Program-made: the position numbers and the translations under genes
Shown here: in pieces, positions 3,963 to 10,934 of the stretch
Layout: each line of letters opens with the position of its first letter
How positions within the stretch are numbered: the stretch's first letter is position 1
Assembly: GCA_964458565.1 (NCBI GenBank)
Contig: CAYWJO010000003.1
Location: 64,001 to 128,000, forward strand
Source: an uncultured archaeon
GTDB lineage: Archaea > Asgardarchaeota > Thorarchaeia > Thorarchaeales > Thorarchaeaceae
Length of the DNA stretch: 64,000 bases
Direction of reading: 5' to 3'
Notes under the pieces: model-generated
What the model was told of the DNA's origin: nothing
The model's database searches: none
The model's input: the letters and a program-made list of their open reading frames with translations, nothing else

Positions 3963-4379
3963 TTGTCAATAGATCGAGAAGGGGCGACGAGTGCGATAAT
4001 CCTACATTTCGAATCGGGAAAAGCTGTTGAATTTCCAACAGAGTTCGTGACAGACATAGGCGAAAAGGCTGCTCTGACAATATTACACCACAAGGATCGG
4101 GTAGTAAAACTTTTCCCTGTAACGAGTGATGATATATATCTTCTAAGGATAGAGATTAGCGACCTATCACGTAATTTCCTGAAGCAGCTCAACTTCGCGT
4201 TCAATGATGCCAAACTATCTGACATCATCTTCACAACTGGTGTCTGTCTTCGTGGCGAACGCTGTTATTATGAGTGCTACTTCGTACCTGATCAGCTAGT
4301 GATAGCTCTGAAAGAACTAGAAGAGAGTCTGAAGAAAATTAATGGCGTATCGAGAGTTGTCCTCAAGAAAGTTGAGTAA
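3963..4379 (+). CDS. 138-aa protein, probable C-terminal ACT-like domain; paralogue A
   Basis: TTG at 3963 gives exactly the same length and N-terminus (xxDRxGATSA) as the neighbouring paralogue. C-terminal beta-alpha-beta-beta-alpha-beta pattern ends LKKINGVSRVVL. Confidence 0.65.
   Translation: MSIDREGATSAIILHFESGKAVEFPTEFVTDIGEKAALTILHHKDRVVKLFPVTSDDIYLLRIEISDLSRNFLKQLNFAFNDAKLSDIIFTTGVCLRGERCYYECYFVPDQLVIALKELEESLKKINGVSRVVLKKVE
4152..4243 (+). repeat. 92-bp near-identical tract shared with 4673-4764
   Basis: GAGATTAGCGACCTATCACG...CACAAC(T/C)GGTGT with 2 mismatches by eye. Confidence 0.85.
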
Positions 4380-4483
4380 CAACTCTGGTTTCCCTATTTC
4401 GAATGGGCATGTACTCTAGCACAGAAGAGTTTATAGTGCATTTACGAATATTATTGAGATGTATATTTCAGGAAGTGTGATGC

Positions 4484-4900
4484 TTGACAACAGATAGAGA
4501 TGGCGCAACAAGCGCGACAATCATGAATTTTGTACCTGGAAAACCAACTGAATTCCCACCCCAGTTTGTGTCAGAATTTGGAGATAAAGAAGGATTGATG
4601 ATATATCATCACAAGGATAGAGTTGTCAAAATATTTCCGATTCACACAGATGATGTCTATCTTCTTCGTGTTGAGATTAGCGACCTATCACGTAATTTCC
4701 TAAAGCAGCTCAACTTCGCGTTCAATGATGCCAAACTATCTGACATCATCTTCACAACCGGTGTTTGCCTTCGTGGAGAACGTTGTTATTATGAGTGTTA
4801 CTTTGTACCTGATCAATTAGCTGTTTCTCTGAAAGAACTAGAAGGTAGCTTGACAAAGATTAGCGGCGTATCGAGAGTTGTCCTTCGAAAGGTAGAATGA
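4484..4900 (+). CDS. 138-aa protein, probable C-terminal ACT-like domain; paralogue B
   Basis: Colinear with 3963-4379 at offset 521; C-terminal half nearly identical. Confidence 0.7.
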   Translation: MTTDRDGATSATIMNFVPGKPTEFPPQFVSEFGDKEGLMIYHHKDRVVKIFPIHTDDVYLLRVEISDLSRNFLKQLNFAFNDAKLSDIIFTTGVCLRGERCYYECYFVPDQLAVSLKELEGSLTKISGVSRVVLRKVE

Positions 4901-4972
4901 AATCCTCATTCCATAGCAATTTTACCAAAAAATAGGGAAATATTCTAAATAGTGAATCCACTTAATTTTATG

Positions 4973-5011
4973 AAAAAAAGGCCCTCAGAACGATATTGCA
5001 TATTCTGAGGG
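4973..5011 (-). terminator. Hairpin plus T-tract ending the RIO kinase operon
   Basis: CCCTCAGAA(4982-4990)/TTCTGAGGG(5003-5011) stem followed by T7 on the minus strand. Confidence 0.7.
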
Positions 5012-5118
5012 TTAGGAGTATTCACAATGGAAATCCATCCATTGATAGACAATTGATTATATTTCAAATCACATATTCTTTGTAATATTTTCACGCTCCT
5101 TTTGTAGTCAAATGGTGA

Positions 5119-5262
5119 TTAAGCGCCTAATCTGAGACCAAGCGCTTCGTACTCACCATAGAGGAACTCTGTAAGTTCCTTACTGTGTTTCATGTTTCTC
5201 TGCAATTTCTCCTTCTTTATACAACATTTTGTCCTTTCAATCTCTTTAGCTGTTTTTATCAC
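5119..5262 (-). CDS. Unannotated 47-aa protein MIKTAKEIERTKCCIKKEKLQRNMKHSKELTEFLYGEYEALGLRLGA
   Basis: GGAGGTGA RBS; the GTG start overlaps the kinase TGA (GTGA coupling). Confidence 0.6.
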   Translation of the reverse strand: MIKTAKEIERTKCCIKKEKLQRNMKHSKELTEFLYGEYEALGLRLGA

Positions 5263-6095
5263 AGCAGTTCACCTCCTTCCCGCATCATCTCGCGGTAGTG
5301 TTTCTTATTCGCAGGAATGTACTCAGACAGAAACACATCAACGATGTGTTCTGAATCGCGGTACACCCCATATTCTTCAAAATATCCCAAGACATTCTGA
5401 ATATCTCGTCTTAGCAGTGCTTCAACCATAGGCATATCAGAAAATGGGCCAACCTCATATGCTTGAGGGACGTCAATAATCCAAGGTCGCTCCTGCCACC
5501 AGAGGATATTGTATCTACTCAAGTCCCCGTGTACGTAGTGTGCATCTCTGTACATGATGAGGTAATCATCTAGAATCTGATCAAGAACTTTCTCTGGTTC
5601 CTCAAGTTTTACGTCTTTCAACTGAGGAGCTGGTATAGTACCATCACCTATGAACCGCATCGTTAGCATATTTGCAACACGACCAATAGGTGTTGGTGAG
5701 TGCATGCCAACCTTGAAACAATTCATTAGAATGTCATATTCAGCCATTGCTAGGTCCTCCATCATGTTTAGAACACAATAAGTCCGCTTGCTTGATGCTT
5801 GGGTCATGTATCCTTTCTTCTTTGAGAGCTGGTGTGAGGACTGATAGAGTCTATACACTTTCAAGATGATAGGATGATTCCTCCAAGTAGCGAGAAAGAT
5901 TGAAGCTTCTTTTCCTGAACTCATCTGGTATAGTACATCAGTTGCAAGCCCGAATGTTACTGCATCCTCCTTTACGGAATCGAATGTGATTTCTTGAATG
6001 ACAGATCCTTTGGTGGTTGAATCACTCTTTAGTGTCTTGACCTTACGTGACACTGACCCACCTTTCTGTGGTTGGAACTTCTCCACTCTACTCAT
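5259..6095 (-). CDS. RIO1-like serine kinase, copy 2
   Basis: SSGKEASIF, LKVYR, HGDLSRYNIL, IIDVPQA. ATG 6095 with GGGAGG overlaps the stop of copy 1. Confidence 0.9.
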   Translation of the reverse strand: MSRVEKFQPQKGGSVSRKVKTLKSDSTTKGSVIQEITFDSVKEDAVTFGLATDVLYQMSSGKEASIFLATWRNHPIILKVYRLYQSSHQLSKKKGYMTQASSKRTYCVLNMMEDLAMAEYDILMNCFKVGMHSPTPIGRVANMLTMRFIGDGTIPAPQLKDVKLEEPEKVLDQILDDYLIMYRDAHYVHGDLSRYNILWWQERPWIIDVPQAYEVGPFSDMPMVEALLRRDIQNVLGYFEEYGVYRDSEHIVDVFLSEYIPANKKHYREMMREGGELL

Positions 6096-6891
6096 GGACA
6101 AACCCTCCCACTTGCTCATCATAGTGTTCAAGATTGGATGGTGTATATTCAGAGAGGAAAATTTCCACAATCTCATCAAGGTCCCGTCTAATCCCATATG
6201 ATTTGAAATCCATCAATACGTTTCTAATATCACGTCGAAGTAGTTGAGTCACATGCTTCATGTCAGCCCATGCATTCACACGATATGCTTGAGGAACATC
6301 AATAATCCATGGTCGCTCCTGCCACCATAGAATATTGTATCCACTCAGGTCACCGTGAACCCAATGAGCATCCCGATACATGAGGAGATAATCATCTAGA
6401 ATCTGATCAAGTACTGACTCCGGATTCTTGAGATCAACATCTCTAAGCTGAGGAGCAGGTAATCCATTCTCACCAATCAAACGCATCGTTAGATAGTTGC
6501 CAACTCGCCCAATGGGAGTTGGCACATGTACACCTGCTTTGAAGCACTCCATCAGTATGTCAAATTCCCTTGCTGCCAACATTGCCATCTTACCAGGGGC
6601 ATAGAACCCTTTCCCTTTTTGCGCCTGTGCGGTTGTCCAAAACCTGTAGGCTTTCAGTAAGATAGGATGTTCCATCCAGCGAGCAATGAAGATAGACGCT
6701 TCCTTTCCAGCTTTTGCTTGATAGATTACATCTGTAGCAAGCATAAACTCTATTGCATCAGTCTTAACATCCTCAAAGGTGATTTCACTGATATCCACTG
6801 CTTTACCCCAACGATCACCTCTGCTTGCATCTCGCTTATGAGAGAGCGCGGAAGCTTTCCTTGGGTTGAATTTCTCTACAACACCACCCAT
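6088..6891 (-). CDS. RIO1-like serine kinase, copy 1
   Basis: AGKEASIF, LKAYR, HGDLSGYNIL, IIDVPQA. ATG 6891 preceded by GGAGG. Confidence 0.9.
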   Translation of the reverse strand: MGGVVEKFNPRKASALSHKRDASRGDRWGKAVDISEITFEDVKTDAIEFMLATDVIYQAKAGKEASIFIARWMEHPILLKAYRFWTTAQAQKGKGFYAPGKMAMLAAREFDILMECFKAGVHVPTPIGRVGNYLTMRLIGENGLPAPQLRDVDLKNPESVLDQILDDYLLMYRDAHWVHGDLSGYNILWWQERPWIIDVPQAYRVNAWADMKHVTQLLRRDIRNVLMDFKSYGIRRDLDEIVEIFLSEYTPSNLEHYDEQVGGFVHE

Positions 6892-6909
6892 TATGCACAA
6901 CCTCCATGG

Positions 6910-6966
6910 TTATTGGTATGGTGTCGGTATTGGTTTTGTATCTGCAATTTTTTTGTTCACTCTCAT
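6910..6966 (-). CDS. Candidate 18-aa uORF MRVNKKIADTKPIPTPYQ
   Basis: ATG 6966 to TAA 6910, ending just before the kinase RBS; no clear RBS of its own. Confidence 0.3.
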   Translation of the reverse strand: MRVNKKIADTKPIPTPYQ

Positions 6967-7109
6967 TGACCAAGTTGCACATGTCCTACGTTAATAGCTC
7001 AATAAACCAAGTAGAAGCAGATACTACACACGTGTGGAGCGAAATCTACGTTCCTTCAGGCATGACATGCGTGACTGACTGAAGTGCACACAGAATCAGA
7101 AATGGGCAA

Positions 7110-7169
7110 CTAAGCCCATACACCACAGGTGCAGAAATCTACTACAAATTCAAGTTTGTTAACAATCAT
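7110..7169 (-). CDS. Candidate leader peptide MIVNKLEFVVDFCTCGVWA (19 aa)
   Basis: GGAGGTG RBS at 7186-7180; the TAG stop lies in the loop of the ATGGGC/GCCCAT hairpin (7102-7119). Confidence 0.55.
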   Translation of the reverse strand: MIVNKLEFVVDFCTCGVWA

Positions 7170-7225
7170 ATACTATCTACACCTCCAAATGTGGTTCATG
7201 TGATTCTTCAGCCAGATTAACTTGC

Positions 7226-7239
7226 ATATAAAGATTCGC
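7226..7239 (-). promoter_or_regulatory. Putative BRE/TATA box for the leader-RIO transcript
   Basis: Minus strand GCGAATC-TTTATAT about 40 nt upstream of the leader RBS. Confidence 0.5.
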
Positions 7240-7365
7240 CACAGCGCCTGTTCGGTTTTTTGCATTTTTTCAAATTGAACCTATTCAGCATTACAGTGCA
7301 TCCCATATGAAGAGATGGATTTGTGAGTTAGAACAGGCAGAAAAGCCAATTAATCTGAAAGGCAA

Positions 7366-9030
7366 CTAGGCTAACGCAGCTCCACACTCTGGACAGAATT
7401 TCGAGGCTGTACCAATGTCCGCCTTGCATGCAGGGCATCGACCAACAAGGGTCGTGAACATAGGAACTAACGAATCTCTCACTCCTTCAACGAGAAGTTG
7501 GCGTGTCCAAATCACATCTATTCCTTTTTTGAATAGCTTCATTGATTCAGGATTCTGGAAAGAATTACCAGCGAGAAGCACTTTTTCATACGATGTTTTG
7601 AACGCTGGATTATCCTTCAATAATTTCTTGACAGTTTTTTGTAACATAGAATCAAGCTCAGCATCGAGCGGCTGATATTCATATGGTAAAGACAAACGAT
7701 CTTCTGGTATTATGATAGGAGGTATAATTAGAGGGGGTCCTTTGTTGTAGGTAACAACATATGTCTTAATGTTTAACTGAGTCAGAGGTGCTAGACCCTT
7801 TATCGCATCATTTTCCAAAGTCAGATAACGAATGCGTTCGAGTTCCTTTCTTAGATCATCAACTCTGACACCTACTACTTTTTCCATCTTTGTTACGGAT
7901 TCTGTAACAGCTTTCTTCAATTTCTCAAACTCGATCTTCCTCTGCGTGATTTCTTCATTCAAATCAGAGAGGGCAGTAAGATGTTCAGCTATTTGCTCTT
8001 CGGTAGATACTTCTTCTTGACGAATATTATCGTCAAGATCATTATCAAGATCTATTGCTTGTTGGAGAGAGTTCTCTGCCAAATCATCCATACTATTGGT
8101 GACATCATCAAAACGAGACTGAATATCTCGAAGGTCCTCCACAAGTAATCTGTATCGCTCAACTGCGGTTTGGATGTCCATTTCGCCTTCTGCGAGATCA
8201 GTTCTTAGAATTTTGGTCTGTTCGATAGCTTCAGAGAAGAAACGCTCGATATCAACAAGCTCCCTACCGAATTTGGTTACAATGGTTTTTTCATCTTTCC
8301 TTCTTCGGTCTCGTAGTCTGTATGTCTTATCTGAAAGGCGATCCTTTAATCGGTCAACTTTTGCATCGGTATTTGTTTGCTGGACTTGATATCGTTTCTC
8401 AAGTCGACTGATTTCAGATGAAATCACGTTATCTAAGATACGTAGTTGGTCAGTTAGACGGTCATGCGCTATTGTTTGCAATTCCTCTATGTTACTTAGT
8501 CGGTTTTGCGCATCTTCTACAATGCATTGAAACTCCTCACTTGTGGATAAGGAACTTTGAGAATCTATCTTCATCTCAGGTATATTCAATTCTATGTTAG
8601 GTTCTATTTGCGTATAGCAGCTCGCAAGGCGAACGAAAATCTCAGGCTCTCTGAGATTATGAATGTGATGCTCCTTCTGCTCAATATCATTTACCAGAGG
8701 AAGCGCCTTAGCAACAGCATCAGGAATGTCCTCAGAATTCATGATTTCCTTGGTGAGAATGCGCCTTATTGGACCAAGCGCTTTGCTTTCACTGACTGAT
8801 ATTTTGGTGGAGTCATCTCCAATACTGGAGAGTACAATGGATCTTGAATCTGACACTTGAATAATCCAGAAGGGAAATGAAACGGCCGTAAGATGCGTGA
8901 TTTTTGCTTTCCCCTTTCTATTGGACTCAGCTAGAATGAAGGCCATCGCAAGTCCTATTTCATCAGACTCAAGTTCAAACTCTTTACCTTTCTGTCGATA
9001 GACAAATTCGAGAGCGATGCGTCGGACCAT
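7366..9030 (-). CDS. Long coiled-coil protein with C-terminal Zn ribbon, function unknown
   Basis: About 280 aa of heptad-rich helix between beta-rich N- and C-terminal segments; CPAC...CPEC at the end; no Walker motifs. Confidence 0.7.
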   Translation of the reverse strand: MVRRIALEFVYRQKGKEFELESDEIGLAMAFILAESNRKGKAKITHLTAVSFPFWIIQVSDSRSIVLSSIGDDSTKISVSESKALGPIRRILTKEIMNSEDIPDAVAKALPLVNDIEQKEHHIHNLREPEIFVRLASCYTQIEPNIELNIPEMKIDSQSSLSTSEEFQCIVEDAQNRLSNIEELQTIAHDRLTDQLRILDNVISSEISRLEKRYQVQQTNTDAKVDRLKDRLSDKTYRLRDRRRKDEKTIVTKFGRELVDIERFFSEAIEQTKILRTDLAEGEMDIQTAVERYRLLVEDLRDIQSRFDDVTNSMDDLAENSLQQAIDLDNDLDDNIRQEEVSTEEQIAEHLTALSDLNEEITQRKIEFEKLKKAVTESVTKMEKVVGVRVDDLRKELERIRYLTLENDAIKGLAPLTQLNIKTYVVTYNKGPPLIIPPIIIPEDRLSLPYEYQPLDAELDSMLQKTVKKLLKDNPAFKTSYEKVLLAGNSFQNPESMKLFKKGIDVIWTRQLLVEGVRDSLVPMFTTLVGRCPACKADIGTASKFCPECGAALA

Positions 9031-9230
9031 TATGAAATCACCTTAGAATGAAAACATCGAGATTCTAGGGTTAATTACGTTTGTTGTGCTATCCTCCCAA
9101 GGAGAACAAGATTCCTGCAGACAGGGAAGGATTTATCTTATCATTTCTGAGCGGTGTTACGATTTCTATTTGAGATTTAGAATGAAACTCATACACGAAA
9201 TTGAATCAATTACACCAGAGGAGGACGCAA

Positions 9231-10934
9231 ATGGCAAATCCAATGAACCCACTCATAGTACAATCAGATAAATCAGTCCTATTGGAAGTTGACAACCCAA
9301 GGTATGAAGAAGCGCGAGATTCTCTAGCAAGATTTGCTGAGCTCGTAAAGAGCCCAGAGTACGTCCATACCTATCGTGTTACTCCACTCAGTCTCTGGAA
9401 TGCAGCAGCTCTTGGAATTACAGCTAGAGAAGTTATTGATTCATTGGAAGAATTTGCCAAATATCCAATCCCTAGTAATATCTCAAGAGAGATTATTGAT
9501 TATATGACTAGGTTCGGTCAGATCACTCTGCTCAAGGAAGGATCTGATTTGATACTTGAATGCGACAATGAAGACCTAGCCTCTGAAATTTGGCAAAGCA
9601 AGAAAGTAAGAGAGCATCTTCAAGAACGAATTGATGAGAGGACATTCCTCGTTGAACCAGGTGAGAGGGGTTTTCTGAAACATGCATTAATAGAGATTGG
9701 ACACCCAGTCGAAGACCTTGCGGGTTACGTCGAGGGAGAACACTTACCCTTTGAGCTACGTGAAACAACTCTTGAAGGAAGACCATTCGCTCTGAGGAAA
9801 TATCAGGATGAGTCAGTCGCAACATTTCATGCAGGAGGCGGTGTGAAAGGTGGGTCGGGGGTTGTTGTTTTACCCTGCGGCGCAGGAAAGACGATGGTCG
9901 GAATTGGAGTGATGTACAAACTACAGACATCCACTGTCATCCTCTGTCCTAACACAGTTGCAGTGCGACAGTGGATTCATGAGATTCTTGATAAGACAAC
10001 GATTACTCCCGATCAAATTGGGGAGTATACTGGAGATTCAAAGAATGTCAGACCAATCACCGTTGCTACGTATCAAATTCTGACCTGGCGAAGATCAAAA
10101 GACGATCAGTTTGAGCATTTTGGTATCTTTGAAGAGAGAAACTGGGGATTGATTATTTACGATGAAGTGCATCTTCTACCAGCACCAGTGTTCAGAGCTA
10201 CAGCGAATATACAAGCTACAAGAAGACTAGGTCTGACGGCTACACTTGTTCGAGAGGATGAAAGGGAAGAGGATGTCTTCAGCCTTATAGGTCCCAAAAG
10301 ATTCGATATGCCTTGGAAGTTACTTGAGGATAAAGGGTGGATTGCCACAGCTATATGTTATGAGATTCGTGTAGAACTACCCGATAATATGAGAAGAAAA
10401 TATGCTCTTGCAGAAGATCGGAAGAAGTACAGAATTGCAGCTGAAAATCCAAAGAAGCTAGAGATAATCGAAACTCTTCTGAATTATCATGAAGCGGATA
10501 ATATTCTGGTAATTGGCATGTATATAGATCAGTTGCAGATAATCGCTGAGAAAATCAATGTACCTCTAATTACTGGCAAGACCAATAATGCTGAACGTCA
10601 ACGGCTCTATGAAGAGTTCCGAGAAGGCAGGATAAAGGTCCTCGTTGTATCCAAGGTTGCCAACTTTGCTCTAGACCTTCCTGATGCAAATGTAGCGATT
10701 CAAGTATCGGGTACATTTGGTTCACGTCAAGAAGAAGCACAACGACTTGGTAGAATTCTAAGACCGAAAACCGATGGAAGTTTTGCTAGATTCTATTCAG
10801 TGATCACAAAAGACACTAGAGATATGGATTTTGCAGCTAAACGACAGCTCTTCCTCACTGAACAAGGGTATCAGTATGTAATAGCTTCTGATGAGGAATA
10901 CATCTGGGAACGGGCACCTGAGAGTTTCTTCTAG
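9231..10934 (+). CDS. xpb: XPB/Ssl2/Rad25 SF2 DNA translocase with N-terminal XPB (Helicase_C_3-type) domain
   Basis: PLIVQSDKSVLLEV...SPEYVHTYRVTPLSLWNA N-terminal domain; LPCGAGKT; DEVH; GLTATLVRED (RED motif); GSRQEEAQRLGRILRPK. ATG 9231 after GAGGAGG. Confidence 0.95.
   Translation: MANPMNPLIVQSDKSVLLEVDNPRYEEARDSLARFAELVKSPEYVHTYRVTPLSLWNAAALGITAREVIDSLEEFAKYPIPSNISREIIDYMTRFGQITLLKEGSDLILECDNEDLASEIWQSKKVREHLQERIDERTFLVEPGERGFLKHALIEIGHPVEDLAGYVEGEHLPFELRETTLEGRPFALRKYQDESVATFHAGGGVKGGSGVVVLPCGAGKTMVGIGVMYKLQTSTVILCPNTVAVRQWIHEILDKTTITPDQIGEYTGDSKNVRPITVATYQILTWRRSKDDQFEHFGIFEERNWGLIIYDEVHLLPAPVFRATANIQATRRLGLTATLVREDEREEDVFSLIGPKRFDMPWKLLEDKGWIATAICYEIRVELPDNMRRKYALAEDRKKYRIAAENPKKLEIIETLLNYHEADNILVIGMYIDQLQIIAEKINVPLITGKTNNAERQRLYEEFREGRIKVLVVSKVANFALDLPDANVAIQVSGTFGSRQEEAQRLGRILRPKTDGSFARFYSVITKDTRDMDFAAKRQLFLTEQGYQYVIASDEEYIWERAPESFF

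Follow-up and report, generated by a model that had tools for sequence, protein, structure and literature searches.

In bacteria, leaders coupled to translation and structured cis-regulatory RNAs are textbook matter; to our knowledge almost none of either kind is known in archaea, and a literature search on the Asgard archaea, the closest prokaryotic relatives of eukaryotes, found no described example. In the erm/cat attenuators (ermCL-ermC, cat86 and cmlA), a short open reading frame (ORF) led by a Shine-Dalgarno (SD) sequence is carried in the same transcript, part of this leader ORF forms one strand of a helix, and the position of the ribosome decides the fold. The trp, his and pyrBI attenuators bring together an ORF, a hairpin at the end of that ORF, a pyrimidine-rich tract and overlapping pairings. 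Archaeal RNA polymerase terminates without need of hairpins. Atypical B12 riboswitches of Mycobacterium tuberculosis act via translation of an upstream ORF (uORF), with structured RNA and uORF in one leader (PMC11260477).

The leader analysed here precedes a tandem pair of RIO-domain genes and has traits of each of these systems. With the erm/cat attenuators it has in common the SD-led ORF and the use of ORF bases as a helix strand. It differs from them in that the helices built from ORF codons are predicted to mask the ORF's own SD and are linked to a downstream pseudoknotted domain, in that no arrest motif is conserved, and in its host, which is an Asgard archaeon; whereas the SD of the regulated gene is hidden in erm/cat, the accessibility of the RIO ribosome-binding site (RBS) showed no consistent effect in a nested thermodynamic model. 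All four elements listed above for the trp, his and pyrBI attenuators recur in the leader, which nevertheless lacks runs of regulatory codons and a conserved U-run terminator and has a much larger structured domain. Compared with the B12 leaders, the order is reversed, the ORF preceding the fold and being threaded into it, and there is no relation in sequence or in Rfam. As in riboswitches, the 5' leader contains a structured domain that is conserved, with covariation in its helices and conservation at its junctions. The leader is closest in its working to erm/cat-type attenuators and to riboswitch-uORF leaders and is assigned here to neither class, since a hidden downstream SD, an arrest peptide, codon runs, a terminator and a ligand are each without support. 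New here are the "Cys-Thr" codons as a predicted anti-SD arm, a helix termed X, and the crossing of two helices termed A:A' and P4.

The window, by which is meant the whole stretch of 64,000 nt that was analysed (assembly GCA_964458565.1, contig CAYWJO010000003.1, positions 64,001 to 128,000), derives from an uncultured member of the Thorarchaeaceae, and the stretch is contained in ten salt-marsh DNA sequencing runs. On the minus strand, the leader lies in the intergenic space that separates a 554-aa gene (7366-9030) from the first RIO-domain gene of the pair. The second RIO gene is a paralogue of the first (61% identity), and its start overlaps the stop of the first by 8 nt. The initial annotation had drawn a series of elements on the minus strand, from a TATA box to a second ORF in front of the kinases, and all of them were recovered at the same coordinates. 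The features of the leader and of the two genes, in the order of the minus strand, are as follows.

7226-7232, minus strand: TATA box TTTATAT, aligned across relatives.
7180-7186, minus strand: SD of the mini-ORF, GGAGGUG, invariant in 55/55 loci.
7110-7169, minus strand: mini-ORF (uORF1) of 19 codons plus TAG, MIVNKLEFVVDFCTCGVWA, with its ATG at 7169 and its TAG at 7112-7110.
7128-7183, minus strand: helix P1, SD arm GGUGUAG (7183-7177) with anti-SD arm CUGCACC (7134-7128; ORF codons 12-14).
7033-7127, minus strand: helix X, UGUGG (7127-7123) plus G7121 with CCACA (7037-7033) plus C7039.
7102-7119, minus strand: stop-codon hairpin, AUGGGC (7119-7114) with GCCCAU (7107-7102), TAG in the loop.
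7085-7101, minus strand: pyrimidine-rich single strand, consensus CGCUGCUUCUGUGUGC, with a near-invariant UUCU..UG.
7054-7084, minus strand: hairpin A:A', CUUCAG (7084-7079) with CUGAAG (7059-7054), its loop holding the 5' arm of P4.
6978-7071, minus strand: long-range helix P4 (7 bp), CGCAUGUC (7071-7064) with GACAUGUG (6985-6978).
6997-7040, minus strand: weak inner helix, GCUC (7040-7037) with GAGC (7000-6997), GCACA/UGUGC in relatives.
7035-7026, minus strand: palindrome CACACGTGTG.
Two copies in the leader, minus strand: repeated 9-mer GTAGATTTC.
6959-6975, minus strand: 3' hairpin ACUU/GAGU (GCUC/GAGU in relatives), with the conserved loop GUCAAUGA.
6892-6932, minus strand: linker of 41 nt carrying the RIO SD GGAGGU (6905-6900).
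Ending just ahead of the RIO SD (6905-6900), minus strand: second uORF of 18 codons, MRVNKKIADTKPIPTPYQ.
6088-6891, minus strand: RIO-like kinase 1 (RIO#1), 267 aa, Pfam RIO1 at 2.9e-34.
5259-6095, minus strand: RIO-like kinase 2 (RIO#2), 278 aa, matching Pfam RIO1.

The assignment of the two kinases was assessed against family models and against other RIO proteins. In Haloferax, archaeal Rio1 and Rio2 function in the 3'-end maturation of 16S rRNA, and RioB-type proteins are uncharacterised (PMC5815136). The best solved relative of RIO#1 is Rio1 of A. fulgidus, in the catalytic half only, and with the NCBIfam Rio1 model the tandem pair scores 83-91 bits against a cut-off of 480, which is not at equivalog level. 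A higher-scoring RIO gene is present in the same genome on contig C46; the pair resembles the RIO proteins of three other loci (L096, L098 and L099) and of bacteria (88-150 bits) more than the C46 gene (85 bits), homologues from Asgard archaea, Bathyarchaeia and bacteria being nearer to it than the canonical RIO of its own genome. By these scores the pair is best placed in a separate RIO subfamily; as a tandem it is specific to Thorarchaeota. Since the pair falls in a separate subfamily, the role in small-subunit maturation that had been carried over to it from known RIO kinases is an assumption and is not established by scores so far below the Rio1 cut-off.

Conservation of the leader was assessed by DNA, profile and covariance-model searches. 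The whole 321-nt leader folds no better than its shuffles (z -0.02), with its 5' module (first 98 nt) doing so modestly (z -2.35), and the case for the leader accordingly rests on conservation. By DNA search, three other genera have sequence of 67-73% identity in front of their RIO pairs, and the blocks of identity start at the TATA box and reach to about 40 nt ahead of the kinase. Profile searches found the element in 30/30 family loci fetched through the kinase and, when widened, in every Thorarchaeota locus with upstream DNA; it lies upstream of the first RIO gene even where the order of the paralogues is reversed. The related loci belong to one GTDB family; they carry the label Candidatus Thorarchaeota, apart from a few recorded as Hermod- or Promethearchaeota. 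A covariance model, R1, was built from 50 distinct copies and matches 55 distinct loci at 50-257 bits. Scans of genomes with R1 gave exactly one copy in the source genome and the element in 23 of the 26 sampled genomes of the family, always beside the RIO pair and never apart from it, and gave no match in 125 genomes across 26 other Asgard families; none of 15 RIO loci from outside Thorarchaeota was matched either. The initial annotation had named conservation of the RBS, ORF and hairpin in relatives as the test of its proposal, and all three are kept in the Thorarchaeota relatives (55 distinct loci), so that its central claim, an SD-led mini-ORF interlocked with RNA structure upstream of the tandem RIO pair, is borne out as a conserved leader. 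Its remark that such control of a RIO pair was not known to be described in archaea also agrees with the searches made here: Rfam 15 contained no matching family at E up to 1 (positions 4000-10000 of the window, both strands), and the papers searched gave no description of such a leader for RIO kinases, Thorarchaeota, Asgard archaea or among riboswitches. The comparisons thus point to a real, conserved archaeal leader RNA that is apparently undescribed.

The mini-ORF opens behind an SD that is the perfect complement of the 16S rRNA 3' end, ...GGAUCACCUCCU, of a family member (G009). The anti-SD was read from G009 and not from the source genome, as the assembly's own 16S rRNA gene is truncated by the end of contig C69 (about 12292 of 12356). 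In another genome of the family (G019), the 16S rRNA locus L119 diverges about 20 nt past GTCGTAACAAGGTA, where the expected ...GCGGCTGGATCACCTCC tail, present in G009 (L120), is replaced by repeated hairpins containing CACATTTCGTG; an insertion or an intron close to helix 45 may account for this departure. Across the 55 loci the AUG of the mini-ORF is invariant and lies 9-11 nt after the SD, and an open frame of 18-26 codons follows in every case, the other two frames closing early and irregularly. The distance from the AUG to the hairpin is 47, 50, 53 or 68 nt in 53/55 loci, each of these values being 2 mod 3, and 64 nt in the two most divergent copies, in which a 21-codon ORF stops just ahead of the hairpin. 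The stop codon lies within the hairpin loop in 51/55 and may be TAA (22), TAG (21) or TGA (12). Entropy climbs weakly over codon positions 1, 2 and 3 (1.29, 1.46 and 1.64 bits). Translation of the mini-ORF is very probable, since indels inside it come in multiples of three and each of the three stop codons occurs.

The encoded peptide frequently begins Met-Ile-Val and is rich in Val, Thr and Ile, and is poorly conserved outside the codons constrained by RNA pairing; no conserved peptide or arrest motif beyond those codons, and no run of any regulatory codon, was found among the 55 peptides. The check on peptide conservation proposed in the initial annotation thus came out in two parts, the ORF and its AUG being kept in 55/55 and the residues only where the RNA constrains them. 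A RiPP or micropeptide reading was rejected on the same ground, the conserved codons being solely the RNA-constrained ones. There is one Cys in 44/55 peptides and none in 9/55, and Trp occurs in 3/55. The suggestion that the peptide senses Cys/Trp supply is not supported, as the single Cys codon is part of the anti-SD arm: the "Cys-Thr" bases GCACC are kept where the residue turns to Ser, Arg or Gly.

The helices were scored on a model-based alignment of the 55 sequences (A4), X and A:A' lying outside the model that made the alignment. P1 is paired in 90.6% of cells, is mostly invariant, occurs in the minimum free energy folds, and is predicted to mask the mini-ORF's own SD. X joins ORF codons of about 14-17 to a partner about 90 nt downstream, where its 3' arm overlaps the palindrome; it is 89.6% paired, has 6/6 pairs changed on both sides, and holds the top covarying column pair of the alignment. 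The stop hairpin (82.6% paired) has 7/7 pairs changed on both sides and P4 (99.5% paired) 6/7. A:A' is 69% paired with 5/7 pairs changed on both sides, its compensated variants including CAUUCA/UGAAUG, AUCCA/UGGAU, AAGUCA/UGACUU and AGCAUU/AAUGCU; the CTTCAG/CTGAAG stem first noticed in the window recurs in the 55 loci. The 3' hairpin (92.7% paired, 2/4 pairs changed on both sides) is followed by GAA and an A-rich ..AAGUUGCA tail up to 6933. Overall, 84-86% of cells are paired, as compared with 28-50% when the partners are slid by 1-3 columns. A swap of helix arms between genomes, which is a register-free test, weakened all four helices tested: cognate and swapped arms gave -12.3 vs -9.3 kcal/mol for P4, -8.5 vs -4.6 for the stop hairpin, -7.5 vs -4.9 for X and -5.7 vs -3.8 for A:A', each with 0/2000 permutations, although the 55 sequences share kinship and shuffle statistics of this kind overstate significance. 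The RNA covariation that the initial annotation had asked to be checked is thus present as compensatory changes in P4, X, the stop hairpin and A:A'. The helices contain 122 G-U cells, which would be A-C on the opposite strand, and this places the structure on the RIO-sense strand.

X and A:A' each cross P4, and the position of the P4 5' arm in the A:A' loop gives an H-type pseudoknot geometry. Because A:A' and P4 both covary and cross, they would form either a pseudoknot or a two-state fold. The inner helix shares bases with the 3' arm of X; it is 82% paired, has 2/5 pairs changed on both sides, and was marginal in the cognate-arm test (32/2000), and with covariation this weak the data fit one static, doubly knotted structure as well as they fit a switch between two states. 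The pyrimidine-rich strand at 7085-7101 has no supported pairing partner. Two further pairings were tried and rejected. A long-range helix UUCU (7094-7091)/AGAG showed no two-sided changes and failed the cognate-arm test (1991/2000), and where its 3' base changes the compensation lies in the local 3' hairpin; for UCAUUGA/UCAAUGA, the changes in three loci (L010, L074 and L002) are uncompensated.

Three helix strands, namely the anti-SD side of P1 and the 5' sides of X and of the stop hairpin, fall within codons of the 3' third of the ORF. As these strands are ORF codons, a translating ribosome and the fold would be mutually exclusive, and since the SD is transcribed 55 nt before its mask, kinetic competition is the simplest reading. 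We therefore favour, with a probability of about 0.55, a structured cis-regulatory RNA built around a translated mini-ORF in which ribosome and fold compete, and to judge from its sequence the leader looks like an undescribed archaeal switch that ties kinase synthesis to translation. Prompt loading of a 30S subunit on the SD, before the anti-SD is transcribed, would let the ribosome keep P1, X and the stop hairpin open, and in such an occupied leader the downstream domain would fold another way. If no ribosome were loaded, P1, X and the pseudoknot would lock the leader with the ORF shut. The leader would then gauge the speed at which active ribosomes engage the RNA as it is being made, and would determine from this what becomes of the kinase message; candidate outputs are RIO translation (dependent on the pseudoknot), mRNA stability, and factor-dependent termination of untranslated RNA. 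When the ORF was masked in a nested thermodynamic model, the accessibility of the RIO SD/AUG showed no consistent shift (mean -0.004; 2 up, 5 down, n=25). Such a leader is a handle on the coupling of transcription, translation and RNA folding in Asgard cells and offers a first hint of function, namely a link to translation status, for a subfamily of RIO kinases whose role is unknown; the element is defined enough for direct experiments, since 55 sequences of it, a covariance model and covariation in four helices are at hand.

A more specific form of this competition, which we put forward only tentatively, is that the leader senses kinetically how well the cell is supplied with SD-competent (3'-matured) 30S subunits and is an archaeal case of a cross-domain leader-ORF control of RioB-like kinases, of which the Heimdall-group and bacterial loci described below would be further cases. 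A perfect, invariant SD set against an internal copy of the anti-SD would here decide the expression of extra RIO-type ATPases. If true, a cross-domain rule would mark the uncharacterised RioB-like kinases as responders to stress in translation or ribosome assembly.

The same anatomy may be read as that of a riboswitch-like or protein-binding leader, in which the knotted domain would bind a ligand or a protein (e.g. the RIO-like kinases), binding would set the formation of P1 and X, and the mini-ORF would be only the expression platform. Covarying helices that flank the conserved unpaired segments CGCUGCUUCUGUGUGC, UCAUUGA and GUCAAUGAGAGUGAA, together with a pseudoknot, are typical of aptamers, the element is strictly associated with a single gene, and Rio ATPases are regulated by RNA (PMC5815136); we nevertheless hold this arrangement to be rather unlikely, given that no Rfam family is matched, that there is no 16S rRNA similarity to hint at mimicry of a Rio binding site, and that the ORF is transcribed ahead of the domain, an order that fits kinetic competition better than aptamer-first control. 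The comparison with rRNA was performed with blastn-short between the 55 leaders and two 16S loci of the family and returned scattered 12-13-mers only; the functions of the genes gave no pointer to a metabolite either.

The promoter and linker bear on whether leader and kinases form one transcriptional unit. The TATA box, which in relatives is preceded by a conserved BRE-like block of consensus GACCGnAAnGCC, is the leader's own predicted promoter, for which we infer the position of the transcription start site; searched with a simple pattern, 45/55 loci have a TATA-like hexamer at a distance of 36-56 nt ahead of the SD. A sigma-70 promoter scan was set aside as irrelevant for an archaeon, and its sole terminator-like match was the stop hairpin. 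The linker to the kinase is 37-41 nt or 144-178 nt long in relatives and is without oligo-T in 24/25 cases, a T run of at least five occurring in 1/25. Because nearly all linkers lack oligo-T and a 41-nt linker is too short for a promoter, leader and RIO pair are inferred to share one transcript. An independent small gene, either a dual-function sRNA or a micropeptide mRNA, with the RIO pair driven by another promoter that lies within the A-rich tail or beyond it, is in our estimation improbable. It would account for a conserved TATA box of the element's own, for the variable distance to the RIO start (37-41 vs 144-178 nt), for the conserved A-rich ..AAAAGUUGCAUAC tail, which otherwise has no explanation, and for the A/T-rich hexamers that the long-linker clade has about 45-50 nt ahead of the RIO AUG; it is made less likely by the missing oligo-T terminator after the element, by the 41 nt that would have to hold a TATA box and an SD-bearing untranslated region unless a tail unlike a TATA box is itself the promoter, and by the failure to find the element away from the RIO pair, and the peptide is too poorly conserved outside the RNA-constrained codons for a gene of this kind. 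Terminator-type attenuation that senses amino-acid supply (Cys/Trp in the version of the initial annotation), with the stop hairpin and a U/C-rich tail ending transcription unless a ribosome stalls at Cys/Trp, is highly improbable. A simple scan does call the hairpin plus TTCTGATTCT terminator-like, and the geometry would let a ribosome at the stop codon melt the hairpin. The sequence after the hairpin, however, is CGCUGCUUCUGUGUGC and has five or more consecutive U in just 3/55 loci, the lone Cys codon is owed to the anti-SD and is swapped for Ser, Arg or Gly with its bases kept, Trp is found in 3/55, runs of regulatory codons are absent, and this reading offers no explanation for the 170 nt of conserved domain further downstream.

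Leaders of RIO genes outside the Thorarchaeota were compared with the element. The nearest non-Thorarchaeota RIO homologues have leaders at L098:966-1085 (plus strand; a Heimdallarchaeota MAG) and L096:647-775 (plus strand; another Asgard MAG). Both carry GGAGGUGC (GGAGGTGC) and an ORF of 21-24 codons whose 3' part pairs with the SD; the stop lies at a hairpin, after which comes a tract rich in pyrimidines, and the fold z-scores are -3.6 and -3.2. They share the 5' module with the element; R1 misses both, and the domain of X, A:A' and P4 has so far been seen only in the Thorarchaeota family. An SD-led ORF of 16 or 19 codons lies about 100-150 nt upstream of the gene at 6/9 bacterial RIO loci (L103:1241-1304, L104:33-96, L106:1355-1419, L109:1049-1123, L110:1014-1088 and L111:1041-1115, all plus strand), the hosts being Atribacteria, Bipolaricaulota, Thermotogae and three Actinomycetota. 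The bacterial peptides are alike across phyla, those of 16 codons being of the type MSVKRTV..ASL..S and those of 19 codons of the type MT....PG..ALL. That similar mini-ORF leaders also precede RIO homologues of a second Asgard class and of several bacterial phyla suggests a general, unrecognised regulatory logic for these kinases.

Other features pointed out in the initial annotation belong to the window itself. The palindrome CACACGTGTG and the repeated GTAGATTTC are present there as described and are not conserved in relatives. The Pro-rich second uORF is likewise real in the window and was rejected as a feature of the family, its AUG being present in 36/55 loci, its length varying from 1 to 62 codons, and an SD being absent. 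In one genus (L089, L051, L090, L021, L018, L025, L065, L026, L007 and L011) the linker measures 144-161 nt and is filled by an ORF of 58-62 codons (MRVKQK...KRKAPLL...), which starts at a conserved AUGAGAGUGAA, with its AUG in the loop of the element's 3' hairpin, and ends beside the RIO SD. Other clades lack this AUG (19/55) or have only 1-25 codons open behind it. Downstream of the kinases, a basic 47-codon ORF (window 5119-5262, minus strand) begins with a GTG that overlaps the stop of RIO#2 (GTGA) and has a GGAGGTG 8 nt upstream of its start, within the end of RIO#2; it looks like a third gene of the operon, translationally coupled to the pair.
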